From Candidatus Moraniibacteriota bacterium (GTDB taxonomy: Bacteria > Patescibacteriota > Minisyncoccia > Moranbacterales > UBA1568): 44,158 nt of DNA. The notes below the pieces were generated by a model. That model saw only the letters and a list, made by a program, of their open reading frames with translations. It did no database searches and was not told the origin of the DNA. Positions 1,904 through 16,871 of the stretch are shown here, piece by piece. The position numbers were made by a program, and so were the translations under genes. The stretch is taken from the NCBI GenBank assembly GCA_017992575.1, contig JAGOOJ010000001.1, forward strand, positions 1 through 44,158, read 5' to 3'. Numbering within the stretch: position 1 is the first letter of the stretch; every line of letters begins with the position of its first letter.

Positions 1904-3010
1904 ATGTTGAAAAAAATTATAGTATTGGTGGGCGGAGCTGTGCTTTTGTCGGGCTGTACGATTACGGTGCCTGGGACAACCCCGATAGTGGACACTGGAA
2001 CTCCGAATGCTTTCAATCAAAAAGTGCAGGCTGGGAGTATGTGGAAAAGTACTGATGGCGGCCAGACCTTTTCCGTGAAGTCACGGGTTGATGAGAAACA
2101 ATCGATAACCAAAGCTGACGTTTTGGCACTTTCTTTTCATCCGACCGATCACGCAACGCTTTATTTTGGGACGGTAGATAACGGAATTTTCAAGACGGTT
2201 GATAGTGGTGAAACATGGCAACAGATTGTTTTTCCACCCAAGAAAATCTATAGTTTTATCTTGGATAAAAATGATCCTGATAAACGAATGTTTGCCTCGG
2301 GGATGCTCAATAACGTGGGAAAGATATTTCGTACCGATGACGGTGGCGAAAATTGGCGCGCCGTTTACACAGAACCAGTAGCTGAAGTCGTTATTACTCT
2401 TTTGGCTCAGCATCCGCGGGATATAAATGTGTTGTTTGCCGGTACGAGCGCTGGAACCGTGGTGAAAAGTACTGATGGCGGAGAAACATGGAAAAATGTA
2501 GGTAACTCTTTGAGTGGGCCTATTACGGAAATAGTATTTGATGCTACTAAACCACTATCGCTGTATGCCCTTTCCTTCAATAGTAAAGTGTACTATTCAG
2601 ATGACGGGGGAGTGGTATGGACTGAGCCAAAGAGTGATCGTACCGATCAAGGGAGTAGTGAAGCTGTTACTCCTGGACCCTTACTCGCATTGGTTGCCGA
2701 TCCAAGTATCTCTGGGCGAGTGTATGGCAGTAAAAGTGGTGGATTGTATCGAAGTAATAATTTTGCCAAAGATTGGGAGAAGATTAATATTATTGAAAGT
2801 GCTGAGAAATCGCCTGTTCGGGCGATAGCTATCAATCCACACGATTCGAACGAAATCGTTTTTGTCGCCGGAAAAGCCTTTTATAAGTCGAAAAATGGCG
2901 GAGAGACCTGGTCAGTGGTTGATCTGTATATAGATCGAAGTGCGTCAGTGCTTATGTATGATCCAAATAATCCACTCACTTTGTATCTGGCTCTTCGTAA
3001 AACTAATTGA
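1904..3010 (+). CDS. BNR/Asp-box repeat beta-propeller lipoprotein (sialidase/Ycf48-like fold)
   Basis: The start was moved to MLKKIIVLVGGAVLLSGC (lipobox LSGC). Six Asp-box motifs (SxDxGxTW) are present: STDGGQTF, TVDSGETW, RTDDGGENW, STDGGETW, SDDGGVVW, SKNGGETW. Confidence 0.8.
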   Translation: MLKKIIVLVGGAVLLSGCTITVPGTTPIVDTGTPNAFNQKVQAGSMWKSTDGGQTFSVKSRVDEKQSITKADVLALSFHPTDHATLYFGTVDNGIFKTVDSGETWQQIVFPPKKIYSFILDKNDPDKRMFASGMLNNVGKIFRTDDGGENWRAVYTEPVAEVVITLLAQHPRDINVLFAGTSAGTVVKSTDGGETWKNVGNSLSGPITEIVFDATKPLSLYALSFNSKVYYSDDGGVVWTEPKSDRTDQGSSEAVTPGPLLALVADPSISGRVYGSKSGGLYRSNNFAKDWEKINIIESAEKSPVRAIAINPHDSNEIVFVAGKAFYKSKNGGETWSVVDLYIDRSASVLMYDPNNPLTLYLALRKTN

Positions 3011-3031
3011 ATAAGACATAAGGTTACTGAT

Positions 3032-3589
3032 ATGATTAAAGAATTGATTGAAGAAAAGAAGCAGAATTTTGAGAGTGCCGTAGAACATTTCTCCAATGAA
3101 GCATCCAAAATTCGTACGGGCCGAGCCCATCCGGGGCTGGTTGAGAATTTGATGGTGGATTATTATGGTACCCGTACGCCCCTTCGTCAGATTGCCAGTA
3201 TCAGTATTCCAGAAGCACGACAGATTCTTATCTCGCCTTGGGACAAGGGTTCGTTGGTGTTGATTGAGACTGCTATCCGTGAGTCAGATTTGGGGCTCAA
3301 TCCCGGAAATGATGGGGTAGCACTGCGGATTACCCTGCCGGCACTCAACGAGGAAACTCGCAAGAATTTTGTGAAGTCGCTTAATCAGCGTGCTGAAGAG
3401 GCTCGTATTGGCGTGAGGAATGTCCGAGAAGAAATTTGGAAAGATATTCAGGAACGTGAGAAAGCGGGGGATATTTCGGAAGATGACAAATTTTCCGGCA
3501 AGGAAGATTTGCAGAAAGTAGTTGATGAATATAATCAGAAACTCGAGACACTCCGGAAGAAGAAAGAAGAAGAAATCATGACTGTTTAG
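3032..3589 (+). CDS. frr: ribosome recycling factor
   Basis: 185 aa. It has VDYYGTRTPLRQIASISIPEARQILISPWDK and an RNVREE...K motif typical of Frr. Confidence 0.95.
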   Translation: MIKELIEEKKQNFESAVEHFSNEASKIRTGRAHPGLVENLMVDYYGTRTPLRQIASISIPEARQILISPWDKGSLVLIETAIRESDLGLNPGNDGVALRITLPALNEETRKNFVKSLNQRAEEARIGVRNVREEIWKDIQEREKAGDISEDDKFSGKEDLQKVVDEYNQKLETLRKKKEEEIMTV

Positions 3590-3627
3590 TCAGAGAACAT
3601 CCTTTAGTTTTTATCTTTTATCATTTT

Positions 3628-4776
3628 ATGCTGACTATTCTCATTTTTGTCGTACTACTCGGGGCACTAGTGTTTGTCCATGAACTGGGGCATTTCTTGA
3701 CTGCTATACGCAACGGTATTCGAGTGGATGAATTTGGGTTTGGTTTTCCGCCGAGACTGTTTGGCATGGTGAAAGATGAAACGAGTGGAAAGTATAAAAT
3801 AGTGTGGGGGAGTAAAGATATGCCGAGCGGAAAAACGGTGTATTCACTGAACTGGATTCCGTTGGGAGGGTTTGTCAAAATTGCCGGGGAAGATGGCCAC
3901 GACACGACTGATCCGGAGAGTTTTGCTAGTAAATCTGCTTGGATACGAATCAAAGTGCTCGGAGCTGGAGTATTCATGAATTTCTTTTTTGCTTGGTTGC
4001 TTATTTCGGTGGTGCTGATGCTTGGGTTGCCACAGCCGATTGACCAGAGTGATCACGGGAAATACCCTAATGCCAAGATTCAAATCTTGAGTGTTGCTAA
4101 AGGTGCTCCTGCAGAAACAATGGGCCTCAAAATGGGAGATGAGCTTGTGACTATCAATGGTAATGCTGTGACCAGCTTAGAACAGGTTTCGGAGGCAATA
4201 AAGAGTCATAAGGGTCAGTCGATAGCTATTGAGGTGGATCGTTTTGGTCAGTCTCTCACACTTTCAGGTGTGCCAAGAGTAGATGCTCCAGCAACTGAAG
4301 GCGCTCTCGGGATTTCGTTCTCGGAAACAGCAGTGGTGTCGTATCCTTGGTACCAGGCGTTCTACGAAGGAGCCAAAGCGACGTATAACATCACGATTGC
4401 GATTCTTCAGGCCTTCGGTAAAATGATTGCTTCGCTTTGGAGTACGGAAGAGGTAGCACTCGATGTTACTGGACCAGTTGGTATCGTCTACCTCACCAAG
4501 CAGATGAGTGATCTCGGACTTCCATACCTTCTCCAGTTTGCAGCCCTCCTTTCCATCAACCTCGGTATCATCAATATTCTGCCGATCCCGGCCCTTGATG
4601 GCGGACGAATTCTGTTTGTGCTGATCGAGAGATTGAAGGGGAGTCCAGTGAGTCGCAAGATAGAGGGAATGATTCATCAAGTGGGATTTATCCTTCTGTT
4701 GCTCCTCATGCTTTTCGTGACGATTCGGGATTTTTCACAATTTCAGATTCTCGACAAGATTCGCCATATCTTCTAG
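3628..4776 (+). CDS. rseP: RIP (site-2) zinc metalloprotease, M50 family, with PDZ domain
   Basis: HELGHF (HExxH) lies in TM1. There is a central PDZ-like segment (GAPAETMGLKMGDELVTINGN) and the NLGIINILPIPALDGGR motif. Confidence 0.9.
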   Translation: MLTILIFVVLLGALVFVHELGHFLTAIRNGIRVDEFGFGFPPRLFGMVKDETSGKYKIVWGSKDMPSGKTVYSLNWIPLGGFVKIAGEDGHDTTDPESFASKSAWIRIKVLGAGVFMNFFFAWLLISVVLMLGLPQPIDQSDHGKYPNAKIQILSVAKGAPAETMGLKMGDELVTINGNAVTSLEQVSEAIKSHKGQSIAIEVDRFGQSLTLSGVPRVDAPATEGALGISFSETAVVSYPWYQAFYEGAKATYNITIAILQAFGKMIASLWSTEEVALDVTGPVGIVYLTKQMSDLGLPYLLQFAALLSINLGIINILPIPALDGGRILFVLIERLKGSPVSRKIEGMIHQVGFILLLLLMLFVTIRDFSQFQILDKIRHIF

Positions 4777-4800
4777 GTTTCTTTTGCCTTGAAAGAGCGA

Positions 4801-4826
4801 AAAACCCCTTATAGAAGGGGTTTTTC
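4801..4826 (+). terminator. rho-independent terminator after rseP
   Basis: AAAACCCCTT-atag-AAGGGGTTTTT. Confidence 0.8.
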
Positions 4827-4845
4827 TGTTGTCATTCTGTCCCTA

Positions 4846-4874
4846 TTGACAATTCACTCTTTTTTTGGTAATAT
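4846..4874 (+). promoter_or_regulatory. sigma70-type promoter
   Basis: TTGACA (4846-4851), a 17-nt spacer, then TAATAT (4869-4874). Confidence 0.6.
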
Positions 4875-4902
4875 ACAGGGTTCATAAATTGTATGTAAAT
4901 CT

Positions 4903-5568
4903 ATGGGAAATCAGTATTTGCTCTCGACGTTGCGCTCGAAAATCGGTACCCTCCTCTTGTGGGGTGTGCTCTTTGGCGCCTTGGGATTCTTTGGTCTCAT
5001 GGTTACAGAGAAGCCATTCCAGACCAAGATGGATTTTTTGGTTGTTCAGACGAACGCTGGAAATCAGGACTTCTATACTCAGTTCAAATCATCTGAGTAT
5101 TTGGGCAACGTGCTGGGAGAAGCGATCTTTAGTGAGCGCTTTGTCAACGCTGTTGTCGAAACAGGTAAAGTCAATGCAGAATTCCTTCCCTTTAATAAGA
5201 AGGACAAACTGAAGGCTTGGAAAGAAATGGTTGCTGTTCAAAAAAACATGGAGCTTGGTATCATCAGCGTGACTGTTTCCGGCAAAAGCGAACGTGAAAT
5301 TTCCCGGACGATGGATGCTATCGCTGTCGTGTTGGCCGAACGCAACAGTCTCTTCCGTGGTGGTGATGAAAAGAGTGTTGAAATTCGTGTGCTCTCCGGC
5401 CCTATTTTGGAACAGAACCCAACTCTCTCCAAGATAGCCAAAGTAGTGATGGCTGCTTTCTTGGCCGGTGTCTTTGTCGCCACTTTCTTTGTGGTCGTCA
5501 AATCGGAACTGCGTCCAGTAGCAGTAGGGAGAGATGATGAGATTCCTTTCAATGAGATGCTGGTCTAA
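4903..5568 (+). CDS. Wzz/YveK-like polysaccharide chain-length determinant (PCP) protein
   Basis: It has an N-terminal TM (LLLWGVLFGALGFFGLMV), then the KPFQTKMDFLV... periplasmic domain and a C-terminal TM (VVMAAFLAGVFVATFFVVV). This is the typical PCP topology. No cognate BY-kinase gene is nearby. Confidence 0.6.
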   Translation: MGNQYLLSTLRSKIGTLLLWGVLFGALGFFGLMVTEKPFQTKMDFLVVQTNAGNQDFYTQFKSSEYLGNVLGEAIFSERFVNAVVETGKVNAEFLPFNKKDKLKAWKEMVAVQKNMELGIISVTVSGKSEREISRTMDAIAVVLAERNSLFRGGDEKSVEIRVLSGPILEQNPTLSKIAKVVMAAFLAGVFVATFFVVVKSELRPVAVGRDDEIPFNEMLV

Positions 5569-5726: not shown

Positions 5727-6755
5727 ATGAACTATCGCATCACCCTGATGCTCATTAGTCTGGCAACTCTCGCGGGTTGCACGACGATGGGGTTTGATCC
5801 GCGCCATGATGCCGCCCTGGCACAGGTGCGGGCCACGGCTCCGCAGAGCCAGTCGGCCGAGGACTTGCGCAAGCAGGACCCACGAGCCAGTCTGGCCCTG
5901 CAAACCGATCCCGTGCTGGTCGAAGGGTACATGGTTTTGAGCATTGCGCTCCCAACCTTGTATCCCGAACTCAGTCGGGAAATCGTTGATTCTCGGCAAC
6001 CGTACCTCCGGTATGTTGCCACCAAGATCGAAACCACCGGATCGGCAGTGAATATTACGCTTGAGTGCAAGCCAGGGAAACCTGCCTGCGCCGACATGAG
6101 CGACACTGCCACGACCAAAGTTCCGCTCCATCGCAAGGTGTGGCGGGCTGGGGTCTATGGTTCGGATGGTCGCATCGAGCGTATGTTCGATGCTGTGTAT
6201 CGCCCGCTCCTTCGGCGCTATGTGGTGCTTGTGCCTCTCTCCGAGTGGCCAAGTGTCATAGGCAAAGAAGTACGCGTCCTCTCGGCCTATGGAGATTTCG
6301 CCATCACTCGTGACGGCGGGCTCCAACGGCTACGGGATGGTGAGGTCGCTGTACTTGCCTCTGGCACCGCAAGGATGCCGGTCAAGTACGACGATCTGGT
6401 GCGGATGTCGCCTGACACACCTGGGGGGAAGTACTTCCTTCAGGTGCTCAGTAGCGAATTCCCGCTCCCGGCGCCGTTTCATAGCGGTGTCGCGCATCCA
6501 GACCTCTACCTCGGTGGAGCCAAGTTGACACGTGAAGAAAACGTGCTCGACTGCTGGACGGGGAGAAACGGCGGTGGCACCATTGTCATCACGCCGGTTC
6601 CGCTCCAGACCACTATCACCTTCGTGGGTTCCCTCCTGTGGAACCTCCCGCGCGTGGCGTCACGTGACTGTGGCGTACACGTACCAGGTTCGAAAGGAAA
6701 GGATGAACAACGCAAAGAAGCTACCCCCGGGTCGCTTCCGAGCGACTCACCCTAA
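5727..6755 (+). CDS. island lipoprotein, unknown function (342 aa)
   Basis: The start was moved to MNYRITLMLISLATLAGC (lipobox LAGC). AGGAG lies 6 nt upstream. It is GC3-rich and matches no recognisable family. Confidence 0.7.
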   Translation: MNYRITLMLISLATLAGCTTMGFDPRHDAALAQVRATAPQSQSAEDLRKQDPRASLALQTDPVLVEGYMVLSIALPTLYPELSREIVDSRQPYLRYVATKIETTGSAVNITLECKPGKPACADMSDTATTKVPLHRKVWRAGVYGSDGRIERMFDAVYRPLLRRYVVLVPLSEWPSVIGKEVRVLSAYGDFAITRDGGLQRLRDGEVAVLASGTARMPVKYDDLVRMSPDTPGGKYFLQVLSSEFPLPAPFHSGVAHPDLYLGGAKLTREENVLDCWTGRNGGGTIVITPVPLQTTITFVGSLLWNLPRVASRDCGVHVPGSKGKDEQRKEATPGSLPSDSP

Positions 6756-6773
6756 CCCTTCTAGGAGCAATCC

Positions 6774-8549
6774 ATGAAAAAATTTCTGTGTTTGTTGCTA
6801 CTCCTTCTCGGAGTAGCGAGCGCCCAGGGAGAGCAATCTCATTGGACGTGGCGTCAGATGGTGAGGTCGATTGACGAGCTGCAAAGCCTGCAAAGCGGTG
6901 TTGCTCCTCATCGGTCCATAGTGGCTGGAGTGGTAACGCAATCGGTTTCCACCGTGAGCGTTCCTGCCTCGGCTCCGACGAGCGTTGCCCCGACCACTTC
7001 GGTCCAGACCTTTTCGCTCAAGTCGGGCGAAACGATGAGCGGTCGCTTCGGGAAGCAGGCGCAAGCGATTTGCGCCTACAACCAGATTGCGAATTGCAAC
7101 ATCGTGCAAGCTGGAAAGTCGTATCGGTTGCTAGGCACTGTGCCTCAGGCGACCAAGATGCAAGCCACAGCGCTTCCGCTCACGGCTCACCTCAGTGCTT
7201 CAACGGCATACCTCGACAACGTGTTCCTTTGGGAGCGTGTTGGTGGGGCGCCGCTTCGGAGTTGCGGTAAGCAAGACGTGGCGACGGTCAACGAGAAGGC
7301 GTGGAACGCACTCATCAAACAAGGCCTCCTCACGGAAGCCGAGCGCGATGAACTGCGCGTGCTTACTAAGGGGTTGACGGAACCGAAAATCGGCCATGCC
7401 GACAACGGAACTGTTCAGCTCACACGGGGCATGCGTCTTGAATCGGTGACGTTTTGCAAGGACGGTCAACCGGTGGTGCGTACCAACGTCAAGACGGCCT
7501 GGGATTTCGGTACGGCGGTGTTCGCTCAAGAGTTCACGCTCAAGAGTGGCAAGCGGGTCCTGTGGGTCCGCAACTGCCTGAACTGGTCTACTCGGTCGCC
7601 GCTTCCTCCGCCGGTGGTTGCAGAACCGCCGGTGGTGGTACCTCCTGAAGCTGCGCCGACGCCGACACCCGCTCCGCCTCCGCCTGCAAAGGTGGTGGTG
7701 CCTACGCCCCGTCCGCCAGCCGAGCAATTGGCTTGCGACGAATGGGATGTGCGGGCCAGTGCCGGTGCCGAGCTCTCGCAAGGCGCGGGGACGAGGACGG
7801 TGGCGCTTTATGGCGACGCTGAAGTTGGTACCTGCCCCTTCAAATGGGAGGACAAGGCAGGCGTTTTCAACGAAGCGCTCATCGCCGGTCGGGTTCATGC
7901 GGCAGACGACGCCTGGCGTGGTTGGGATGGCAAGACGGTCACCGCCATGGCTGGTTTCGGTCTCCGGCGGTCGTTCCCGGACGGTTCCATGGACCTGTAT
8001 CGGCTCATGGCCGGTGTGCGGACGAACAATGGGTCGCAAGGCCTGTACTCGCACGACGCGCGCTGGAAAGTGCTCGGCCTCTATGGCACGCATTACCGGG
8101 TCGAGGACGATGGCACGAACGAAACGCACTACCGCTGGGGCTTGAATGTCCACTTCGGGCAGGCCACAGGTTCTGCTTCCTACAGTGGCTCTTCGCTTCC
8201 GCTTCCGCGTTACAACGGCAGTATCGAAGTAGGAGTCAGGCGCTATGTTGATCCGCAAGGTGAAGACATTCGCCGGTTCTGGGAGTTGAACGCAACAATG
8301 GTGTCGCCGGACTATGCTGGCATCAGCCCTCGGGTTGGTGTCTGCAATGGCGATGACACCCTGTGCGGTCTGGTTGGTGTCAACATCGACGTGCAGAACG
8401 GCGGTGTGGCAGCGATGGTTGGTGTCCAGGTCAACACACCTGGGGTCATCCGCTATAACAGGGATGGTCGAATCATGAAGGACGTCGTCGAGGCCGCCAA
8501 GGTCAACGGCACCACCTTCTCGTTCGCGCCGGCCACCAAGCGCAAATAA
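6774..8549 (+). CDS. island secreted protein: signal peptide, LysM-like segment, Pro-rich linker, beta-rich C-terminal domain (591 aa)
   Basis: The signal peptide is MKKFLCLLLLLLGVASAQG. FSLKSGETMSGRFGKQAQAICAYNQIANCNIVQAGKSYRL (aa 79-119) has LysM-like spacing. SPLPPPVVAEPPVVVPPEAAPTPTPAPPPPAKVVVPTPRPP spans aa 275-315. The C-terminal ~270 aa has alternating hydrophobic/polar residues. It starts 18 nt after the lipoprotein stop. Confidence 0.75.
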   Translation: MKKFLCLLLLLLGVASAQGEQSHWTWRQMVRSIDELQSLQSGVAPHRSIVAGVVTQSVSTVSVPASAPTSVAPTTSVQTFSLKSGETMSGRFGKQAQAICAYNQIANCNIVQAGKSYRLLGTVPQATKMQATALPLTAHLSASTAYLDNVFLWERVGGAPLRSCGKQDVATVNEKAWNALIKQGLLTEAERDELRVLTKGLTEPKIGHADNGTVQLTRGMRLESVTFCKDGQPVVRTNVKTAWDFGTAVFAQEFTLKSGKRVLWVRNCLNWSTRSPLPPPVVAEPPVVVPPEAAPTPTPAPPPPAKVVVPTPRPPAEQLACDEWDVRASAGAELSQGAGTRTVALYGDAEVGTCPFKWEDKAGVFNEALIAGRVHAADDAWRGWDGKTVTAMAGFGLRRSFPDGSMDLYRLMAGVRTNNGSQGLYSHDARWKVLGLYGTHYRVEDDGTNETHYRWGLNVHFGQATGSASYSGSSLPLPRYNGSIEVGVRRYVDPQGEDIRRFWELNATMVSPDYAGISPRVGVCNGDDTLCGLVGVNIDVQNGGVAAMVGVQVNTPGVIRYNRDGRIMKDVVEAAKVNGTTFSFAPATKRK

Positions 8550-8833
8550 CTGAACACGGCTTTATTCTCAATGTCGATAAAAACTGCTTACCACCTGTCT
8601 AAAGACAGGGGACGTCCAGCGTATACGTTGGAATGGAGCAAGCAAGACAGAGCGTCATGAACTCATGACGTCACAACGATACGAAAGTATCGGAGTGAGA
8701 AAAGCGAAATTCAGTTCGATAGAGGCGGAGTATCCCACGTGGATGCCCGCCTTTACCCTTTTCTATGACTATTTTAGGTTTTTTTATAAGAATATATGTG
8801 GGGTTGACCACGTCGGTCGCGACCGGTGGTTGA

Positions 8834-8883
8834 CCCTGTGTAATCTGGCTTTGCCTGTCCGCTTGAAGCGGAATTACACAGGG
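8834..8883. promoter_or_regulatory. 11-bp perfect inverted repeat abutting the -35 of the 8884 promoter (operator-like)
   Basis: CCCTGTGTAAT (8834-8844) pairs with ATTACACAGGG (8873-8883). The 28-nt spacer contains the CCGCT-tga-AGCGG hairpin. GGTTGAC(C/A) boxes occur at 8802, 8828 and 8882. Confidence 0.5.
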
Positions 8884-8914
8884 TTGACAAATTCCGTGGA
8901 TATGCTAGTATACT
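8884..8914 (+). promoter_or_regulatory. sigma70-type promoter for the first Cys-rich secreted paralog
   Basis: TTGACA (8884-8889), a 16-nt spacer, then aTGcTAGTAT (-10 at 8906-8911; alternatively TATACT at 8909-8914). An AT-rich UP-like tract lies at 8772-8800. Confidence 0.6.
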
Positions 8915-9052
8915 CTCTCGTTCCTTTTCATAGGTACGCGGGGGGTGATACTCCCAGTGTATCGGCTTATACCATTTTCACGGAGGTGCATGGGCGGTTG
9001 AGACAGTACTCCTGTTTTAACCGCCGAAGGACATCGGAGTTTCTAGGCGGGT

Positions 9053-9093
9053 GGAAGGCTTACTTTCACTCATGCCTTCCTCCTTTTTCTTTC
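9053..9093 (+). terminator. terminator-like hairpin inside the 5' leader of the 9120 gene (possible attenuator)
   Basis: GGAAGGC (9053-9059) pairs with GCCTTCC (9074-9080) and is followed by TCCTTTTTCTTTC. It lies 27 nt upstream of the ATG. Confidence 0.45.
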
Positions 9094-9119
9094 ACCCCTC
9101 AACATCTACAGGGGGCATC

Positions 9120-9935
9120 ATGCGTCGCTTCATTATCAGCATCATCTCGCTTCTCTTCGCTCTCACGGCGGTTCAAGCCCAAGTGCGGGTCAAGGAGAGC
9201 GACAAACCCGTCGGTTCGGTCACGGCGACCGGCGACCTGTCCTACCAGATCGTGGTGGAAAAGACCGGCGTGGTCGTTCGTCTCGATCTGGGTCAAGTCG
9301 TTCCGGCTGAAACACTGGCTTGGGTTGGCAACGGGCGTCAACCAGGCGCTGTGCGAGCGTTCTGCTCGGCCAACCCCGGCATTTGCCAACAACCGTTCCA
9401 CATGTGGTGTGGGAAGGGGCAGAACGCCGAGGTGTGCCGGCAGGTACAGGATGTGAGCATCTCGTGCCACAACCCGGCCAACCAGTCGTTCTGCAGTTCG
9501 CTCGCCTGGGTTCACCGCGAATCCGATGGCGAGATGAACAAGGGCACGCCCTGGGCCGACGATGCAGTCCTCCTTGACTTCTTGGCCGGCAAGACGGTTG
9601 ATCCGACTCTGGTGGAGAACATCCGCAAGTGCACTTACCGTCCGGCAACCTTCGCGGTGGTCTGCGACGTGGTGGTCAAGCCCGAGCAGAAGGGGACTGG
9701 TCGGTTCCAGTCGCACTTCAGTGCCGTCGACCAGAAGACTGGTGTGGTGTACGCCGGTTACCAACCCCAGCGGGTCAAGGCAGGTTCGCATCCGGTGCAG
9801 GTGTACCAAGACGACGGCCAGGGCAATCCGCACCAGGTCATCGGCACAGGTGCCCAGCAGCCTCGCCTCGACCAACCGTCGACTGAAGCCATTGGCTTCG
9901 CCCCGGCCACTCCGGCCTCGGCGCCCAAGAAGTAA
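9120..9935 (+). CDS. island Cys-rich secreted protein, paralog 1 (271 aa, 8 Cys)
   Basis: The start was moved to MRRFIISIISLLFALTAVQA. It is homologous to the 10197 ORF through TG-V-RLD, GIC, CTY...VC, HFSA, YQPQR and GNPH motifs. Confidence 0.75.
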   Translation: MRRFIISIISLLFALTAVQAQVRVKESDKPVGSVTATGDLSYQIVVEKTGVVVRLDLGQVVPAETLAWVGNGRQPGAVRAFCSANPGICQQPFHMWCGKGQNAEVCRQVQDVSISCHNPANQSFCSSLAWVHRESDGEMNKGTPWADDAVLLDFLAGKTVDPTLVENIRKCTYRPATFAVVCDVVVKPEQKGTGRFQSHFSAVDQKTGVVYAGYQPQRVKAGSHPVQVYQDDGQGNPHQVIGTGAQQPRLDQPSTEAIGFAPATPASAPKK

Positions 9936-9956
9936 GCGCCGACAGCGCCTCACTCG

Positions 9957-10013
9957 CCCCAGAAGGGAAGAATCAGTGCAGTGCACGAGATTCTCCTTCC
10001 GGGGCTTTTTTCT
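9957..10013 (+). terminator. rho-independent terminator after paralog 1
   Basis: CCCCAGAAGGGAAGAATC...GAGATTCTCCTTCCGGGG forms a long GC-rich stem with one bulge, followed by CTTTTTTCTT. Confidence 0.8.
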
Positions 10014-10061
10014 TACCTAAAATATGGCTTTTTTAAGCCAATTCTTATAACCACTAGGGGG

Positions 10062-10090
10062 TTGACAGAATCCACGGGAGGGTGTATAAT
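10062..10090 (+). promoter_or_regulatory. consensus sigma70 promoter for paralog 2
   Basis: TTGACA (10062-10067), a 17-nt spacer, then TATAAT (10085-10090). The spacer begins gaATCCacGG, compared with aaTTCCgtGG in the 8884 promoter. Confidence 0.7.
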
Positions 10091-10196
10091 GGTCTATTCG
10101 GTGGGCGTATGCCCCCGACCCAGTTCCTTGTCACTGTATCCAACCGCCTCCCCACTGCTCGCGGGGATCAAGGCTCATTTTGAAGAGGAGAGCACC

Positions 10197-10739
10197 ATGA
10201 AGACGACTTTCAAGCTTTTGGCCATCTCGGCCACTCTGGCTCTGGCCACCCAGGCCATCGCTGCTCCGACTTGCGCCATGCAGGTGACCGGAAACCAGGT
10301 GAAGGTGATCATCGCCGATACCGGCCTGGTTTACCGCTTGGATCGCCAGCAGATCCCGCCGCAGGGCGCCAAGGTCTATACGGGCACTGGCCGTCCCGAC
10401 GTCGACCGCACCGTGTCCTGCAAGGACGCCAATGGCATCTGCGCTGGCGCCAGCTGGTATTTGCGTTTTGCCGACGCACAGCAGGGCTTCCCGGGCGACG
10501 AAGCACTGGCCTCCGACCCGCGCGTGGTGCCCTGCACCTACGACGCCGGCGCGTTGGCCCAGGTGTGCACCTTTACGCTCAACGACGGCATGAAGACCGA
10601 CCGCGGCGAGGTGCGCATGCACTTTTCCGCCAAGGTGGGCGACCAGGTCCCGGCGGCCTACCAGCCCCAGCGCGGTGGCTGCGCGGTCACCAAGGACGCG
10701 GATGGCAATCCGCACACCACCGTCGCCGTCACGCGCTGA
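10197..10739 (+). CDS. island Cys-rich secreted protein, paralog 2 (180 aa, 6 Cys)
   Basis: The start was moved to MKTTFKLLAISATLALATQAIA, with GAGGAG 7 nt upstream. It shares motifs with the 9120 ORF. Confidence 0.75.
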   Translation: MKTTFKLLAISATLALATQAIAAPTCAMQVTGNQVKVIIADTGLVYRLDRQQIPPQGAKVYTGTGRPDVDRTVSCKDANGICAGASWYLRFADAQQGFPGDEALASDPRVVPCTYDAGALAQVCTFTLNDGMKTDRGEVRMHFSAKVGDQVPAAYQPQRGGCAVTKDADGNPHTTVAVTR

Positions 10740-10776
10740 CGCCTCGGCCGCGGCTGAACCCAGCCGCACCAACCCA

Positions 10777-10807
10777 CCCCCGGAACTCAAAATCCCGGGG
10801 GTTTTTT
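10777..10807 (+). terminator. rho-independent terminator closing the island
   Basis: CCCCCGG (10777-10783) pairs with CCGGGGG (10795-10801), followed by TTTTTT. A ~30-nt polypyrimidine tract follows. Confidence 0.8.
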
Positions 10808-10840
10808 CTTTTTCTCCTTTTTCTTTTTCCACTTTTCTCG

Positions 10841-10852
10841 TATACTAAAGGC
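10841..10852 (+). promoter_or_regulatory. -10 element giving a leaderless or near-leaderless SDR mRNA
   Basis: TATACT (10841-10846) is followed by 6 nt (aaaggc) and then the ATG. There is no SD. The same TATACTAAAGnCATG string occurs at 30130-30144. Confidence 0.5.
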
Positions 10853-11626
10853 ATGATTATGGAAACAGTAGAAACGAAAACACAATCGGTCATCCTTATT
10901 ACCGGAGCTACTTCTGGTATTGGTTTGGCATTGGCGCGACTGTTTGCGCGTGATAAACATGATGTGTTTTTGGTGGCGCGTGATGAGGAGCAACTGAAAG
11001 CTGTCCAGAAAGATTTGTCTCAAACATACGAAGTAACGGTCTATTATGCTTGTGGTGATATGACTGACCGACACTTTGTAGCCACACTCCCGGCATTGGT
11101 GCATGAGAAACAGCTGGTGGTTTCCTGTCTCGTCAATAACGCGGGGAGCGGCGTCCAGGGGGCGTTTGCTGAAACCGATTGGGAGAAGGAAATTACCTCT
11201 TTCGAGCTTATTGCCTATGCGCCTACCTATTTGAGCAAAGTCTTTCTATCTGATCTGATTCAGAATCAAGGAAAAATTTTGAATGTTATTTCTACCTCGG
11301 CCTATGCTCCGGGAAATAATATGGCGGTGTACTCGGCTGGCAAAGCCTATCTGTTATCTTTTTCAGAATCATTGTCTCTCGAACTGGCATCACAGGGGGT
11401 CACGGTAACGGCGCTCGTCCCTGGACCGACTCGTACCGGATTTCAGTCAGCCAATGGCCTCGGAGAACTCCCCAGTTGGCGTTTCCCCAGTGCAGAAGCG
11501 GTAGCTTCATTTGGGTACCGGGCGCTTCAAAAAAATAAAACCGTGGCCATTCATGGGCTACGGAATAGACTCAACTATTTGGTTTTGAAATACACTCCGC
11601 GTTTTATCGTGCGGATGTGTGCTTGA
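10853..11626 (+). CDS. short-chain dehydrogenase/reductase (SDR) family oxidoreductase
   Basis: It has TGATSGIG (TGxxxGxG), NNAG and YSAGK (YxxxK). The listed 10271 start is an out-of-frame-overlap artefact across the island. Confidence 0.85.
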   Translation: MIMETVETKTQSVILITGATSGIGLALARLFARDKHDVFLVARDEEQLKAVQKDLSQTYEVTVYYACGDMTDRHFVATLPALVHEKQLVVSCLVNNAGSGVQGAFAETDWEKEITSFELIAYAPTYLSKVFLSDLIQNQGKILNVISTSAYAPGNNMAVYSAGKAYLLSFSESLSLELASQGVTVTALVPGPTRTGFQSANGLGELPSWRFPSAEAVASFGYRALQKNKTVAIHGLRNRLNYLVLKYTPRFIVRMCA

Positions 11627-13010
11627 ATTCGGGCAGTTGCCGGAAGGCAATGAGGGCCCCGAGCAGGATGAAGAATATCCACTGAAGGGGGGTGTCTTTG
11701 TAGATGTTGTCAGTGAGTGAAGAGAGGAGTAGGAGTCCACTGTAGAGCGAGAAAGCCACCACCAAGCGACGATAAGCAAGCGGGAGGGTCCAGAGGGTAC
11801 GGATTTCGGAGCCAATCAGAGTGAGATAGAGCAAAAAAACAGTCAGGCCGATTACACCTCCTTCAACATAGAATTTGACGAAATCATTGTGAGAATCAGT
11901 GCTACCGAGGCTGGTACCACGCAGACTGTAGGCGTAGGAGCTGAACGTATCGAGTCCGGTTCCATAGAGTCGTCGGCCATCGATGCGCAGTTTGGTCGTG
12001 ACATCATGCCAGATTTCTTGGCGCCACACAATTGAACTATCCGGTTTGGTTTGAAAGCTTTCCAAAATGCGATCATGAATAGTTGGTGAAAAAACAAACA
12101 GTATGGCAGGGATGGCAATGAGTGGAAAGAGGAAGATGCGGGAACGCCAGAGTGCCAAAATGAGGACGTAGAGAAAGAGGGCTACCCAAGCTACTCGGGT
12201 GTAGGTGAGAAGCAGGAGGAAGATCGCAATGAATCCGTAGCAGATGAGGACGAAGGGGAGGAGAGCAGAACGCTCTGTGCGGGCCGTGTCATTTTTCGAA
12301 GGTGGGAGAAAAAAGTAAAACGTCATGATGGCAAAGAGTGAAAAGAGATAGAGGGCCAAGACGTTGGTATGGGCAAACGTGCCATAGATACGAGGGACAT
12401 CGACACTGCTGTCGGTGAGCCCGATGTTGAGGGCGACCTGACGAACTGATTCCATGACGGGCAGGATTGAGGAAAAGAGCAGGATGAGGAGCGCCTGTTT
12501 CATTTTGGTTGTGTCAGTAACGGAGATAAAGGCCAAGAAGCTGATGGAAAAGATAGAGACGAGGCGAGCAATTTCCTCTATGGACTGGAGGGGGTCGACA
12601 CTGTAGGTAGCGGAAACCAGCCCAAAGAGTCCGAGGAGAGCAAAGGGTTTCCAGAGAGGGAAATGGAGCATCTTTTTGATGTAGAGCGCGAAGATGGTAA
12701 CGCTTAGTAAAATAAGAAAGACTCCGAGCGCTTGCGAAAGACTCATCGACACATTCGATCCAATCGAAATATGAATAGTTTCAGAAAGGTAGTCGAGGGT
12801 CATGCGAATGGTAATGAGGATGCCAAGGAGCACGAGGGGTCGTTTCAAAAAAGCAAAAGAAGCGAGTACCACGAACACACCTGGTGCCATGAGCGGACTC
12901 ATACCCAGGATGAGTGAGAGACTCAGAAAGAGGGCAGAGATAAAAAAAAGTCCCACCCAAAAACTTGCTTGTTTGGGCGAAAAGAAGCTGGTTTCAGGAG
13001 TGGTATTCAT
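11604..13010 (-). CDS. O-antigen ligase/polymerase-like (Wzy_C/WaaL family) polytopic membrane protein
   Basis: It has about 12 TM segments, plus GTFAHTNVLALYLF, YTRVAWVALF and HNDFVKFYVEGGVIGL motifs typical of the O-antigen ligase family. Confidence 0.7.
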   Translation of the reverse strand: MNTTPETSFFSPKQASFWVGLFFISALFLSLSLILGMSPLMAPGVFVVLASFAFLKRPLVLLGILITIRMTLDYLSETIHISIGSNVSMSLSQALGVFLILLSVTIFALYIKKMLHFPLWKPFALLGLFGLVSATYSVDPLQSIEEIARLVSIFSISFLAFISVTDTTKMKQALLILLFSSILPVMESVRQVALNIGLTDSSVDVPRIYGTFAHTNVLALYLFSLFAIMTFYFFLPPSKNDTARTERSALLPFVLICYGFIAIFLLLLTYTRVAWVALFLYVLILALWRSRIFLFPLIAIPAILFVFSPTIHDRILESFQTKPDSSIVWRQEIWHDVTTKLRIDGRRLYGTGLDTFSSYAYSLRGTSLGSTDSHNDFVKFYVEGGVIGLTVFLLYLTLIGSEIRTLWTLPLAYRRLVVAFSLYSGLLLLSSLTDNIYKDTPLQWIFFILLGALIAFRQLPEFKHTSAR

Positions 13011-13018
13011 ATAGTTTC

Positions 13019-13048
13019 AGTATACCATTGAATGTTTTTTTGTTACAA
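13019..13048 (-). promoter_or_regulatory. minus-strand promoter for the ligase-like gene
   Basis: On the minus strand: TTGTAA (13043-13048), an 18-nt spacer, TATACT (13019-13024), then 8 nt to the ATG (13010). Confidence 0.5.
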
Positions 13049-13049
13049 T
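13041..13049 (+). promoter_or_regulatory. extended -10 promoter for the GT4 gene (leaderless geometry)
   Basis: TGtTACAAT is followed by 6 nt and then the ATG at 13056. It overlaps the -35 of the divergent promoter on the other strand. Confidence 0.5.
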
Positions 13050-13055
13050 AGATGT

Positions 13056-14300
13056 ATGCGTATCCTTTTGATTCACAAATTTCATCACGCCTTGGGAGGA
13101 GCGGAGCGGGTGTATTTTGATACAGCAAGGTTGCTTCGGGCTGCTGGGCATGAAGTGGCGTTTTTTTCCATGGTTCATCCGAAAAATGAGCCAACACCCT
13201 GGGCCCGCTTTTTCGTCTCGGAGGTTGAGTACGGTGATGCTGGGAAAAGCTTCCGCGACAAGCTTCGTATCGCCACTCGCATCATATGGAATCATGAAGC
13301 CAATCAGAAATTAGAGGCTCTCATTGATGAATTTCAGCCCGATGTGGCTCATGTGTTTAACCTGTATCATCAACTCTCCCCGTCGATTTTGTGGGTATTG
13401 AAACGGCGCCACGTTCCTGTGGTACTGACACTGTGTGACTTCAAGGTTGTATCGCCAAACTATTTCCTCTACCATTTTGACGAGCGAAGAATCTGGAGGA
13501 GTACCTCTGGTTTTCGTTGCATCATCGATAAAGCTGTTAAAAACTCATACAGCAAGTCTTTCGTGTGTGCGTTAGAGCTTTGGCTTCATCGGCTTTTAGG
13601 GAGCTATAGGACTGTGGCACTCTTTCTGTCCCCCAGTCAGTTCCTCATTGATACGTACCGGTCGTTTGGTTTTCGGGGGAAGGTGCAGTTAGTGCATCAC
13701 CCGGTGGTCACAGGAGAAGTGAACATCCCTGAAAAAGTGATCCCTCTAGCAGAACGTCCGGAGGAGTACCTCTATTTCGGTCGTTTTTCGCCTGAGAAGG
13801 GGGTGGAAACGGTTATTCGGGCTTTCGGACAGTTGCCTCATAAAAAGCTCCTTTTGGTAGGGTATGGGCCGGAAGAAGAGCGTTTGAAACGGTTGGTTAC
13901 GGAGCTCCATTTGGACGAACGAGTGGCTTTTTTGGGCGGGGTGTACGGTGAAGATCTCGAACATATTATCCGACGAGTGCGAGCGGTTATCATGCCACCG
14001 GTCTGGTATGAGAATCAGCCGTTTGTCATGATGCAGACACTCCTCTCAGGGACACTCCTCATTGCCTCACGTATCGGAGGCATTCCTGATATCGTGAAAG
14101 ACACAAAAAACGGTCTCTTGTTTGAGCCGGGGGATGTAGCAGATTTGGTTCGAGTGATGGAAACACTTCCCTGGGAAACCTATGAAACGATGACAGCGCA
14201 AGCGCATGCCACCGTTCTACCCTATACAGAAGAATGTTATCTGAAAGAGGTAGAAGAAAGCTACGCCAAAGTTTTGGGAGAAGCGTCCCGCAGGGTATAA
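13056..14300 (+). CDS. glycosyltransferase family 4 (GT-B, retaining)
   Basis: It has MRILLIHKFHHALGGAERV, GRFSPEKGVE and the E-x7-E region ENQPFVMMQTLLSGTLLIASRIGGIPDIV. Confidence 0.85.
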   Translation: MRILLIHKFHHALGGAERVYFDTARLLRAAGHEVAFFSMVHPKNEPTPWARFFVSEVEYGDAGKSFRDKLRIATRIIWNHEANQKLEALIDEFQPDVAHVFNLYHQLSPSILWVLKRRHVPVVLTLCDFKVVSPNYFLYHFDERRIWRSTSGFRCIIDKAVKNSYSKSFVCALELWLHRLLGSYRTVALFLSPSQFLIDTYRSFGFRGKVQLVHHPVVTGEVNIPEKVIPLAERPEEYLYFGRFSPEKGVETVIRAFGQLPHKKLLLVGYGPEEERLKRLVTELHLDERVAFLGGVYGEDLEHIIRRVRAVIMPPVWYENQPFVMMQTLLSGTLLIASRIGGIPDIVKDTKNGLLFEPGDVADLVRVMETLPWETYETMTAQAHATVLPYTEECYLKEVEESYAKVLGEASRRV

Positions 14301-14302
14301 CC

Positions 14303-15103
14303 TTAGAATCTGGGCAGTTGAAAGATAGAGCGCCAAGCTCCACTGGGATCGTGTTTTTTCCAGAGGGTTACGAAGCTCTCCCCAAGACACAGGAGTGAGA
14401 ATATCACGACGTAATTCCAGGTGCGTTTCATCCGGCGAGGATGAAGCAGGAGTCGCCAGAGCCATTCCAATCCGAACTGACGTACGAGCTTGGGAGCTCG
14501 TGTTTGTTTGTGAGTGTAAAAGTCAAAAGTACCCCCGACGCCCATGACGATCCGGGCCCCACTTTCGGGATAGGAACGGAGGCGTGCGAGGAACGTATCC
14601 TGAGTAGGGGCGCCGAAATTGGCGAGGACGAGAGCCCCGTGGACATGTTCGAGTGCTGTGGTCATGGATTGTTCGGAGTGAATATCAACATTGTCACCAT
14701 GAACGACGAGGTTCGGGAAACGATGAAGGAGGGCGGCGCGTGTTTCTTCGTACGAACTCAAGCCGTCGGTGCGGGCGAGCAGATAGACATCATGATGATG
14801 TTCTTGGGCATACGCCAGCAGGTATTCAGTCAAATCAGAACCAGGGATGCGTTCAATCAATTCTTTGCCCTGCAAGAAGGCAGGCAAGTGAATACCGACA
14901 CCATCAGCCAGTGACAAGTCGGCAGTGTTGATGATTTCTTGGAAGTCTTCCTTTTTTCGTGCCACCATAACGAAATCGGGGTTTACTGTGGCAATCTGAT
15001 GAAAACGATCGGAAGCGAAAAATTCGGCGAGGCGCAAACGCACGTCAACCAAGGAAAGATTGTCGATTTTGAGTCCGAGGGCATTGATAGTTTGCATAGG
15101 CAC
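14303..15103 (-). CDS. WecB/TagA/CpsF family glycosyltransferase (N-acetylmannosaminyl/ManNAcA transferase type)
   Basis: It has VNPDFVMVA, LSLADGVGI, GAPTQDTFLARL and GVGGTFDF motifs. Confidence 0.85.
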   Translation of the reverse strand: MPMQTINALGLKIDNLSLVDVRLRLAEFFASDRFHQIATVNPDFVMVARKKEDFQEIINTADLSLADGVGIHLPAFLQGKELIERIPGSDLTEYLLAYAQEHHHDVYLLARTDGLSSYEETRAALLHRFPNLVVHGDNVDIHSEQSMTTALEHVHGALVLANFGAPTQDTFLARLRSYPESGARIVMGVGGTFDFYTHKQTRAPKLVRQFGLEWLWRLLLHPRRMKRTWNYVVIFSLLCLGESFVTLWKKHDPSGAWRSIFQLPRF

Positions 15104-15123
15104 TTTTCAATAGATAACCCGTA

Positions 15124-15152
15124 ATTATACTCCTAAAATGGAGAAATGTCAA
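15124..15152 (-). promoter_or_regulatory. consensus sigma70 promoter for the TagA-like gene (minus strand)
   Basis: On the minus strand: TTGACA (15147-15152), a 17-nt spacer, then TATAAT (15124-15129). The ATG is at 15103. Confidence 0.7.
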
Positions 15153-15173
15153 GAGGAAAAGTGTTTTCTGGTA

Positions 15174-15202
15174 TTGACAGAAGAGTAGAAATAGTGTATG
15201 GT
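15174..15202 (+). promoter_or_regulatory. sigma70-type promoter for the epimerase gene
   Basis: TTGACA (15174-15179), a 17-nt spacer, then TATGGT (15197-15202). Confidence 0.55.
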
Positions 15203-15233
15203 GTTTAGTTAATCGCTAGAGTGAGCCTTTTCT

Positions 15234-16259
15234 ATGACATCTCTCCAAAAAACTCTGGAACCCAAAAAGTGTCTGGTTTTGGGTGGGGACAGCTTTATGG
15301 GTAGTCATCTCGTCGATGATTTGCTTGCTCGTGGGCATGATGTGCGGGTTTTCGATATTTTTCCTCTGGGTAAAATAAAGAATATTCGTCATCTCAAAGG
15401 AAAAATTCCTTTTTATAAAGGTCATTTATTGGAGCGTTGGCGTTTAGCTCGGGCCCTACGTGGCGTTGACGTAGTGTTTCATTTTACTTCGCTCAGTACC
15501 CCAGCATCAACAGCTCATAATCCTCAGGAAGAAATTCGCTTGAACCTGAAGGGAACGTTGCAACTCTTAGACTTATGCGTTAAAGAAGGGGTGAAACAAA
15601 TCGTTTTTCCGTCTTCTGGGGGTACCGTATATGGCAATGCCTTGGAAGAAGTAGCCAGTGAAACAACGCAGATGCGACCACTGTCGCCCTACGCTGTGAC
15701 CAAATTAACGATCGAGGAGTATCTGCATTTCTATCGCCGTCAGTATGGGCTCGACTTCATCATTTATCGGATTGCCAATCCCTATGGGGAACGACAGGAT
15801 CCTGATGGTATACAGGGTGTTATCCCGATTTTCATGAAACACATGATGAAGGGAGAAACCATCACGCTCTATGGAAATACAGTCCGTGACTATGTGTATG
15901 TGAAGGACGTGACTGGTTTCATAGCGGAGAATTTCAGTCATCCGCATAAGAATACAACCTATAATATTGGGAGCGGTCGGGGAGTGGCGCTGTTCGAGCT
16001 GATCCTCATGCTAGCCAAGACAACCGGATCCATGCCGAAAATCAAACGTTTAGAAAAACGGCCGTTTGATGTTCAAAAAATCGTGCTTGATATTACCCGG
16101 GCGAACGAAGAGTTTGGTTACTATCCTATGACCAGTCTGGAAGTGGGGCTAGAAAAGACATACGTTGTCCTAAAAGAAAAATTGATGCACGAGCCGTTAG
16201 CTCGGACGTCTTGGTTTGACATGGACTTCATTAAGTTCATAAAATGGAACAGGGTCTGA
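15234..16259 (+). CDS. NAD-dependent nucleotide-sugar epimerase/dehydratase (extended SDR)
   Basis: It has the Rossmann motif VLGGDSFMGSHLV and the catalytic motif YAVTKLTIEEY (YxxxK). Confidence 0.85.
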   Translation: MTSLQKTLEPKKCLVLGGDSFMGSHLVDDLLARGHDVRVFDIFPLGKIKNIRHLKGKIPFYKGHLLERWRLARALRGVDVVFHFTSLSTPASTAHNPQEEIRLNLKGTLQLLDLCVKEGVKQIVFPSSGGTVYGNALEEVASETTQMRPLSPYAVTKLTIEEYLHFYRRQYGLDFIIYRIANPYGERQDPDGIQGVIPIFMKHMMKGETITLYGNTVRDYVYVKDVTGFIAENFSHPHKNTTYNIGSGRGVALFELILMLAKTTGSMPKIKRLEKRPFDVQKIVLDITRANEEFGYYPMTSLEVGLEKTYVVLKEKLMHEPLARTSWFDMDFIKFIKWNRV

Positions 16260-16306
16260 TATACCCTGTAAGATGTTCGTTTGTAGAAACCTCAAAGGAG
16301 AGAGAG

Positions 16307-16777
16307 ATGAAGGTTTGTGCTGTTCTCTGTGGAGTACTGCTCCTCGCATCAGGAGCGCATTCGCAGGACGGAGTGGATTCGACGATTTTTGTCCCGAGAC
16401 AGGGCGTCGATCAGGTGCCCATCGAAATCGTCTTTCCGCTCAAGGAGCATAAGGACGCTTATGCCAAAGCGGTGGCTCTTCGGCGTCTGATTGAACGTCG
16501 TTTGCGTCCCCAGCGAAACGGTGATGGGCGTTCGTATTTGGGCAAGTGCATGGTTGAACCCTACCAGCTCGAGCTGGGGTTGGCCACACTGCGTATCGAA
16601 TGTTGGTCGTTAGGCCTCTGGCCAGGCGACGAGGCCTTAGCCGCTATCGGTGCTCCGGAGACGGTAGAAGAAGCCATGGTCTTCATCGAGGCCTTTCTCG
16701 CCAAGCATCGCGAGCGTTTGGCTCGGCCGGTGCCACCTCCAGCGCCTACGCGTTCCCAGATGGTCCGCATGGCCTGA
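16307..16777 (+). CDS. small GC-rich secreted ORFan (156 aa)
   Basis: The start was moved to MKVCAVLCGVLLLASGAHS (signal peptide), with AGGAG 6 nt upstream. G+C is visibly higher than in the flanking genes. The C-terminus is Pro-rich (PVPPPAPT). Confidence 0.65.
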   Translation: MKVCAVLCGVLLLASGAHSQDGVDSTIFVPRQGVDQVPIEIVFPLKEHKDAYAKAVALRRLIERRLRPQRNGDGRSYLGKCMVEPYQLELGLATLRIECWSLGLWPGDEALAAIGAPETVEEAMVFIEAFLAKHRERLARPVPPPAPTRSQMVRMA

Positions 16778-16801
16778 CACGCCGTTTCCACACCCACCGT
16801 A

Positions 16802-16832
16802 CAGCCCCCAGAACTCTGGCCGGCTGTTTTTT
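16802..16832 (+). terminator. rho-independent terminator after the 16307 ORFan
   Basis: CAGCC-c-CCAG-aact-CTGG-cc-GGCTG followed by TTTTTT. Confidence 0.7.
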
Positions 16833-16871
16833 CTTTTGCCACTTTTATATTCAGATTCTTGCTTCAAAAAC

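Follow-up and report, generated by a model that had tools for sequence, protein, structure and literature searches.

Strain-variable, cysteine-rich paralogs predicted to be exported, in a cell-envelope locus of a Candidatus Moranbacteria genome

Introduction

In cultivated bacteria, the genes for flagellins, pilins, S-layer proteins, porins and O-antigens form strain-variable loci that are exchanged by homologous recombination. Here we describe two adjacent genes, A and B, that vary between strains in a comparable way in a bacterium of the Candidate Phyla Radiation (CPR, or Patescibacteria). The genes lie in a 44,158-bp stretch of DNA, hereafter the window, which is a whole contig (JAGOOJ010000001.1) of a metagenome-assembled genome (MAG) of 'Candidatus Moranbacteria bacterium', and all features named below are on its forward (+) strand. 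The CPR accounts for a large share of bacterial diversity, its members appear to live attached to other cells, and to our knowledge their surface molecules are almost entirely unknown. The locus offers concrete candidates for such molecules, combining an orphan protein family, very strong expression signals and a link to a wall-binding protein with a predicted beta-barrel. The A/B family, without known relative in sequence or fold, is new, and the kind of system that it represents, strain-variable exported proteins exchanged as cassettes, is already known.

Other described surface systems also bear comparison with the locus. The inverse autotransporters (type Ve) intimin and invasin possess a periplasmic LysM domain, a 12-stranded barrel and a passenger of immunoglobulin-like (Ig-like) beta-sandwiches. 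Outer membrane-peptidoglycan tethers of the OmpM/SlpA type join a domain that binds the wall to a beta-barrel through an extended linker. The S-layer genes of Gram-positive bacteria are monocistronic and strain-variable; their promoters are very strong, their 5' leaders long and structured, and their terminators strong. Curli systems are recognized by CsgA and CsgB subunits built of imperfect amyloid repeats rich in Q/N-X10-Q/N, together with a CsgG-family channel.

Divergent paralogs

Gene A (9120..9935; MBP6929310.1, KBB77_00050) encodes 271 amino acids (aa) and gene B (10197..10739; MBP6929311.1, KBB77_00055) encodes 180 aa; both are annotated by NCBI as 'hypothetical protein'. An earlier interpretation of this DNA, made from its letters alone (the sequence-only reading), had proposed that the two are paralogs, and this proposal was borne out by BLASTP (27% identity over 233 columns, E = 2e-10), by a profile of the B-type relatives alone, which matched A at E = 3.8e-25, and by a profile of A-type sequences alone, which matched B at E = 1.5e-9. 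Searches of the 44,158-bp window with these A-only and B-only profiles revealed no third copy of the family. Most of the motifs that the reading had listed as common to both proteins (TG-V-RLD, G-GR, CxY...VC, HFSA, YQPQR and GNPH) were present, in order and aligned, but its GIC match was not: the NPGIC of A falls within an insertion specific to A, and the A counterpart of NGIC in B is QSFC. Eight Cys in mature A and six in mature B (158 aa) agreed with its counts. It had also been right that A carries a Cys-rich insertion, but this insertion measures 34 aa (A residues 76-109, positions 9345-9446), with four Cys, rather than about 60 aa. The remainder of the 91-aa difference in length is made up of several smaller insertions or deletions and a Pro/Ala-rich C-terminal tail of about 30 aa in A, which ends in ...QPSTEAIGFAPATPASAPKK, while B ends in ...TTVAVTR.

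Several database entries for B (P0004, P0052, P0054 and similar ones; we refer to family proteins by P numbers and to loci by L numbers) are 215-225 aa in length and represent over-extended gene calls (window 9981-10739), which begin at an upstream GTG or ATG inside the promoter and leader ('MVYSVGVCPRP...'). The true start of B is the ATG at 10197, behind a GAGGAG Shine-Dalgarno sequence.

Allele exchange between near-identical strains

Comparison with L002 revealed an abrupt change in divergence at the two genes. The flanking DNA (1850-5500 and 11150-20000) was 97-100% identical between L002 and the window, whereas the A coding sequence was 65-75% identical and the B coding sequence could not be aligned. 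The regulatory sequences were better preserved, at 95% identity for the A leader and about 87% for the region of the A terminator and the B promoter and leader. Protein identities followed the same course, with 98-100% for the flanking genes, 93% for the LysM protein encoded upstream of A (described below), 59% for A, and 23% (full-length alignment) or 36% (118-residue local alignment) for B. Synonymous divergence (dS) rose from 0.01-0.18 in the flanking regions to about 1.0 for A and B; the alleles have therefore been swapped in as old sequences rather than having evolved rapidly in place. These comparisons show that deeply diverged allele classes of A and B have been exchanged by recombination while their regulatory flanks were conserved.

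Closer alleles (L004, L007 and L011) gave ratios of nonsynonymous to synonymous divergence (dN/dS) of 0.12-0.20 (0.13-0.17 for A and 0.12-0.20 for B), and on this evidence A and B are real genes under purifying selection. We rejected positive selection in place as the cause of the divergence, given that dS is saturated along with dN and that dN/dS between close alleles is so low. In L004, where A and B were 90% and 85% identical to those of the window, it was the N-terminal half of the LysM protein (the LysM and middle domains; L004 1904-3637 versus window 6796-7606) that was replaced by an unalignable allele, and the barrel half of the same gene retained 89% DNA identity. The hypervariable region is therefore a mosaic, and is not confined to A and B.

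Like the strain-variable antigen loci of cultivated bacteria, A and B combine deeply diverged alleles of saturated dS with near-identical flanks, purifying selection within an allele class, export and strong expression (both predicted for A and B), and a fixed position in the genome. Unlike those loci, they have no relationship in sequence or fold to the known antigens and fall well short of the size of typical S-layer proteins or flagellins, their host is an uncultured CPR bacterium, and their exposure at the surface is putative. Swapping of alleles between near-identical strains is a hallmark of molecules that are seen by hosts, phages or predators, and the locus provides a clean natural case of cassette-like allele exchange with conserved regulatory flanks.

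An orphan family of Moranbacteria

The sequence-only reading had recognized no characterized family in the two proteins, and our searches concur. A had no match in Pfam, NCBIfam or PHROGs; B belonged to no family in these databases, and its lone match (TGBp3, E = 0.17) fell within the signal peptide. The best match to a PDB sequence profile was not significant (E = 0.23). A word-indexed search of 5.8 billion proteins recovered three relatives for A and six for B, and HMMER, run exhaustively over 1.84 billion cluster representatives, gave 14 matches, 12 of them real members of 146-261 aa, among which ten were full-length B-type proteins (176-212 aa). The other two, P0020 (2599 aa) and P0021 (721 aa), are repeat proteins matched many times over short stretches, and we rejected them as repeat-inflated artefacts.

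All named family records were from Candidatus Moranbacteria or Moraniibacteriota, and as judged from these searches the family is very small and confined to Moranbacteria-like (CPR) genomes. A single B-type gene is the complement of most of these genomes, and the A type is limited to the sub-clade of the window. P0019 diverges most, with 19-29% identity to the other members. In L001, a Moraniibacteriota MAG, the gene order is reversed, with a short paralog (P0015, 196 aa, 9112-9702) before a long one (9980-10786). P0015 groups with the A lineage and has the A-like motifs VNEADKPS and WVEDADI, yet it retains the first and last Cys of B (Cys1 and Cys6), which suggests either a third subtype or gene conversion between the paralogs. 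Two of the loci, L008 (CAYRWQ010000016.1) and L010 (CAYOHD010000010.1), come from GTDB representatives titled 'uncultured Bdellovibrionales bacterium' that have a gene order of the Moranbacteria type, and these labels are probably wrong.

Predicted export, disulfide bonds and fold

Both proteins begin with a canonical signal peptide ending in AxA, at residues 1-20 of A (9120-9179; ...TAVQA|QVR) and residues 1-22 of B (10197-10262; ...QAIA|APTC). Cys makes up 3.1% of A and B and 0.6% of the proteins in the rest of the window. In an alignment of 20 family sequences, loss of Cys was strictly pairwise. Cys1 (in APTC) and Cys6 (in the GxC near the C-terminus) were jointly lost in all A-types, P0019 and the B protein of L002; Cys2 and Cys3 in P0016 and L002-B; and Cys4 and Cys5 in P0009, P0014, P0015 and L002-B. 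P0003 has lost the entire set of four Cys of the A insertion. Because Cys are lost only in pairs, they most plausibly form real disulfides, and hence the proteins would be exported, as the earlier reading had held on other grounds. We infer bonds 1-6, 2-3 and 4-5 for B, and for A the loss of the 1-6 pair and the gain of the four-Cys insertion.

AlphaFold2, given only nine sequences, modelled mature B as an all-beta protein with a predicted local distance difference test (pLDDT) score of 89.3 and a predicted template modelling (TM) score, pTM, of 0.85. Foldseek searches of the B model against PDB and BFVD returned nothing at E<=1e-3, with a query-normalized TM score (TMq) of at most 0.38. The top, non-significant rows were the adhesin domains FedF, ACE and SiiE, and B did not share their topology: TMq was 0.17 for FedF (4w6y), at a root-mean-square deviation of 16 Å, and 0.20 for ACE19. 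Both proteins are predicted to be exported by the Sec pathway, cleaved after AxA and folded as compact beta-sandwiches. They differ from CsgA and CsgB in having no repeats, B being a predicted globular, disulfide-bonded sandwich, and the lipoprotein encoded nearby has no CsgG match in Pfam or NCBIfam.

Inspection for means of attachment gave negative results. Neither protein has a sortase anchor (an LPXTG-type motif, hydrophobic segment and basic tail), and the A tail contains no hydrophobic segment. Neither has a lipobox at its cleavage site, the Cys of B being at +4 and not +1, and neither has a Pfam domain for wall anchoring (SLH, CWB2 or similar).

Promoters, leaders and terminators

Each gene forms a separate cassette of promoter, coding sequence and terminator, as had been claimed from the sequence. 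The promoter of A (8884-8911) is TTGACA-16-TAGTAT with the TG of an extended -10 element, and is conserved in L002, L004, L007 and L012; that of B (10062-10090), TTGACA-17-TATAAT, matches the consensus at 12 of 12 positions and is conserved in L002, L004, L007 and L011. The chance expectation for such promoter sites in the region is 0.8. A Shine-Dalgarno sequence precedes each gene. Both intrinsic terminators fold as strong hairpins followed by UUUUUU: a long GC-rich hairpin behind A (9956..10011, z = -4.4), nearly invariant in five loci, and a CCCCCGG...CCGGGGG hairpin behind B (10776..10808, z = -3.9). The single-copy family genes of L003 and L008-L010 have similar consensus promoters, long leaders and strong Shine-Dalgarno sequences upstream.

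The likeness between the two promoter spacers, which the earlier reading had linked to possible co-regulation, is present in the window, but the bases concerned vary among the orthologous promoters of both genes. The likeness is most likely due to chance, and a common operator in the spacers was rejected. The hint of co-regulation fails on the same ground, and also because the 5' leaders of A and B are unrelated: their upstream regions have only GGGTTGACA in common.

The leader of A (8915..9119) is about 205 nt long and unusually structured (fold z = -5.5). Its 25-nt core (GGGCGGGTGGAAGGCTTACTTTCAC) is invariant and is able to fold as a terminator-like hairpin with a U run behind it. The leader also has a covarying hairpin, and a further one that base-pairs with the Shine-Dalgarno sequence. 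Conservation of the leader exceeds that of the coding sequence, even for the L001 ortholog, which is 59% identical. Compensatory changes were found in the covarying hairpin (alignment columns 76-109) in two lineages, and the hairpin that pairs with the Shine-Dalgarno sequence is kept in L001 by different sequences (CCCCU/AGGGG versus CCUCA/UGAGG). In a metagenome scan, the exact 21-mer of the core occurred only upstream of close A-type genes, which led us to reject a widespread riboswitch-like class. A permissive Rfam search of 8400-10900 found no family, its lone match (mir-204, E = 0.34, upstream of the promoter) being due to chance. The A leader could be a new cis-regulatory element. The leader of B (10097..10196, about 100 nt, including its GAGGAG) is conserved in sequence and not unusually structured (z = 0.16).

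These signals, together with the strain variation and the adjoining genes for secondary cell-wall polymers (a WecG/TagA-type glycosyltransferase and Wzy_C), resemble the arrangement of Gram-positive S-layer genes. Unlike S-layer proteins, mature A and B are only 158-251 aa long, and lack SLH, CWB2 or any other anchoring domain.

The LysM-barrel protein and the surrounding locus

The gene directly upstream of A (6774..8549) encodes an exported 591-aa protein, which starts with a signal peptide and continues with a LysM domain (~78-119), a middle domain, a Pro-rich linker (278-320), a predicted barrel (323-554) and a short tail. Pfam recognized the LysM domain in three of ten homologs (best 8.5e-7), and a PDB profile search matched Ecp6 at 1.3e-6. 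AlphaFold2 predicted twelve long antiparallel strands for residues 323-554, with pLDDT of 80-94, and Foldseek found 74 PDB matches to the model at E<1e-3. The top matches to the barrel were the translocators of NalP, BrkA, Hbp, EspP and AIDA-I (probability 1.00, target-normalized TM score (TMt) 0.37-0.55), and the intimin beta-domain (4e1s) and porins were also among the matches. At the sequence level, neither the Pfam Autotransporter family nor any PDB profile supported a barrel.

All 11 loci with sufficient flanking sequence (the window, L001-L004, L007-L010, L013 and L015) have a gene of about 600 aa (561-623 aa) immediately before the family gene, and the locus of P0019 is among them. Homology of this gene to the 591-aa protein was aligned in L002, L004 and L007, and a LysM domain was recorded for L004 and L013. 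The co-occurrence with an upstream pair, which had been put forward as a check on the sequence-only reading, is thus observed, and one or two lipoproteins and a CpsC/Wzz-like protein precede the 600-aa gene. In the window, the lipoprotein (5727..6755, with 5727 the likely true start) is 342 aa long with the lipobox LATLAGC, has no match in Pfam, NCBIfam or PHROGs, and keeps its position in L001, L002, L004, L009 and L010. The CpsC/Wzz-like protein (4903..5568, 221 aa, two transmembrane segments) is encoded by the first gene of the conserved module. It resembles a polysaccharide co-polymerase, matches NCBIfam TIGR01006 at E = 1.8e-10 (under the curated cut-off), and is syntenic in L001, L002, L004 and L009, with a 251-aa form in L003. 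Downstream of the family genes are a short-chain dehydrogenase/reductase (SDR), Wzy_C, a GT4 glycosyltransferase, the WecG/TagA-type glycosyltransferase, a beta-helix protein and further glycosyltransferases. The family gene is therefore placed inside a cell-envelope glycopolymer locus. Comparison of the A/B family with the 591-aa protein and the 342-aa lipoprotein by hhalign indicated no common domain (probability of about 1% or less).

The LysM domain, the predicted 12-stranded barrel, the 4e1s match and the adjacent small predicted beta-sandwiches recall intimin and invasin. When the predicted barrel was compared with type Va and type Ve examples, NalP, BrkA, Hbp, EspP and intimin all matched at probability 1.00 and TMt 0.44-0.55, as a comparison of the model only. 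The locus departs from intimin and invasin in that the sandwiches are encoded by separate genes with their own signal peptides and promoters rather than being covalently attached as a passenger, the barrel occupies the C-terminal part, behind a Pro-rich linker, and its best matches are classical type Va translocators. The similarity of B to Ig-like or Big domains was not significant (TM below 0.4). The wall-binding LysM, the Pro-rich spacer of about 45 aa and the predicted C-terminal barrel of the 591-aa protein also recall the OmpM/SlpA tethers. It differs from them in having LysM and not SLH, in its 12 strands, in the absence of detected homology, and in the strain variability of its N-terminal half, a surprising property for a buried tether. 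No OMP85, Lpt or Lol genes were found among the 20 window proteins scanned on this 44-kb contig, and our literature search found nothing specific on an S-layer in Moranbacteria or on beta-barrels in the CPR. A further difference from intimin and invasin is that CPR cells have proved to be monoderm in the few descriptions available (PMC8871954); because of this, an outer-membrane-type barrel in a CPR genome would be unexpected, if the prediction is correct, and would challenge the assumed simple monoderm envelope.

The end of A (...IGFAPATPASAPKK, 9888-9935) and that of the LysM-barrel protein (...TFSFAPATKRK, 8517-8549) have a similar pattern of aromatic, APA and basic residues, also in L002. 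This common C-terminal pattern could be a sorting or wall-binding tag, or a coincidence.

A codon-usage island

GC content at third codon positions (GC3) was 0.76 in A, 0.85 in B, 0.68 in the LysM-barrel gene and 0.62 in the lipoprotein gene, whereas the 26 remaining genes that we scored had values of 0.37-0.59 (about 0.45 for the remainder of the window). These four consecutive genes form a codon-usage island (5727-10739), in which codons ending in C and in G are both enriched (C at NNY 0.78 versus 0.30; G at NNR 0.79 versus 0.47). The GC3 excess recurs in L001, L002, L004 and L007-L010, and is weaker in L003. This gene-specific excess could lend itself to a test of biased gene conversion in an organism with a reduced genome.

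Possible roles of A and B

We propose, with a probability of roughly 45%, that A and B are abundant, Sec-exported, disulfide-stapled and surface-exposed proteins that vary between strains and act together with the LysM-barrel protein, and whose diversity results from frequency-dependent selection. According to this proposal, they would be adhesin-like or coat-like proteins of the envelope that function jointly with the protein composed of LysM, Pro-rich linker and beta-barrel. Phages, host recognition or grazers would impose the selection that maintains the diversity, and homologous recombination anchored in the conserved flanks of promoter, leader and terminator would shuffle the alleles. The high GC3 would then most simply be a by-product of frequent recombination, through GC-biased gene conversion, or reflect codon selection in highly expressed genes.

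Several observations weigh against this proposal. Sequence inspection and the Pfam, NCBIfam and PHROG searches revealed no anchoring motif in A or B (LPXTG, lipobox, SLH, CWB2 or transmembrane segment), and no binding function can be borrowed from a known protein because their fold has no structural relative. Strong expression is predicted from signals in the DNA, surface location is presumed, and the suggested physical link between A/B and the barrel protein derives from gene order only. Furthermore, the A/B alleles assort independently of the barrel-gene alleles. The barrel model was built from a 10-sequence alignment, and its pLDDT for the whole chain is only 65.7. Finally, the two lineages that have diverged furthest (L013 and L015) do not show the GC3 excess, which is therefore not intrinsic to the family.

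The lack of an anchor and the small size of the proteins would be at home in two other explanations. A and B may be accessory factors within the wall or a periplasm-like space (plugs, chaperones, or assembly or regulatory subunits) that are not displayed at the surface, and whose client is either the LysM-barrel protein or the machinery for glycopolymer export (the CpsC/Wzz-like protein, the lipoprotein and Wzy_C). The strict gene order between the LysM-barrel gene and the Wzy_C, GT4 and WecG genes is consistent with such a role, and the conserved YQPQ motif could be a docking site. We nevertheless regard it as unlikely. Strains of about 99% identity would not normally exchange alleles as different as these (23-59% identity) for housekeeping accessory subunits, variation in the A/B alleles does not track that of the barrel gene, and the monocistronic consensus promoters and separate terminators suggest that expression is very high and independent, not stoichiometric. 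It is also conceivable, although somewhat less so, that A and B are diffusible effectors directed against a host or competitors (toxins, bacteriocin-like proteins, lectins or nutrient scavengers) and are engaged in an arms race. Signal peptides, stabilization by disulfides, strong expression signals and hypervariability would suit effectors as well. However, no immunity-like gene adjoins them, the searches found neither a toxin nor an enzyme domain, the genes occupy a fixed position in an envelope-biogenesis locus in every genome without sign of a mobile element, and selection within the allele classes is purifying.

The codon-usage island might be taken as an indication that the lipoprotein, LysM-barrel, A and B genes arrived recently as a block of foreign DNA from a high-GC donor and have no special role in the envelope, for which the elevated GC3 and the enrichment of both G- and C-ending codons would be natural evidence. 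We rejected recent horizontal transfer as the cause of the GC3 excess and consider this explanation highly improbable. No homolog outside the lineage was found among the 5.8 billion and 1.84 billion proteins searched, the module is syntenic even where its proteins have diverged to 22-55% identity and so must be ancient in the lineage, and intergenic GC within the block is host-like (0.48-0.53). In addition, the excess persists across alleles of saturated dS, so it is being maintained and is not decaying, and a donor lineage was not found. These data are better explained by codon selection, or by a recombination hot spot with GC-biased gene conversion, than by decaying foreign DNA.

A more ambitious extension of the proposal of surface-exposed proteins, which we regard as speculative and rather doubtful, is that the lipoprotein, the LysM-barrel protein and A/B together form a previously unrecognized surface apparatus of Moranbacteria. 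If so, the apparatus could amount to an outer-membrane-like layer, although the lineage is presumed to be monoderm; alternatively, it could be a pore-and-adhesin device that, in episymbiosis, makes contact with the envelope of the host cell or becomes inserted into it. Both versions would have the swappable A/B alleles set specificity for hosts or phages.

Other observations

A structured non-coding stretch of 334 nt (8550..8883; fold z = -6.4) extends from the LysM-barrel gene to the A promoter. It contains several hairpins and several palindromes, including one with a 12-bp arm just upstream of the -35 box of A, and has no Rfam match. The stretch is about 97% identical in L002, L004 and L007 and absent from L001; it could be a small RNA, a 3' untranslated region, or a recombination or regulatory element. 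Further downstream, an open reading frame of 177 aa (16244-16777), between an epimerase gene and a gene resembling ADP-forming acetyl-CoA synthetase, has a raised GC content of 0.57, no Pfam match, and 100% identity to its counterpart in L002.

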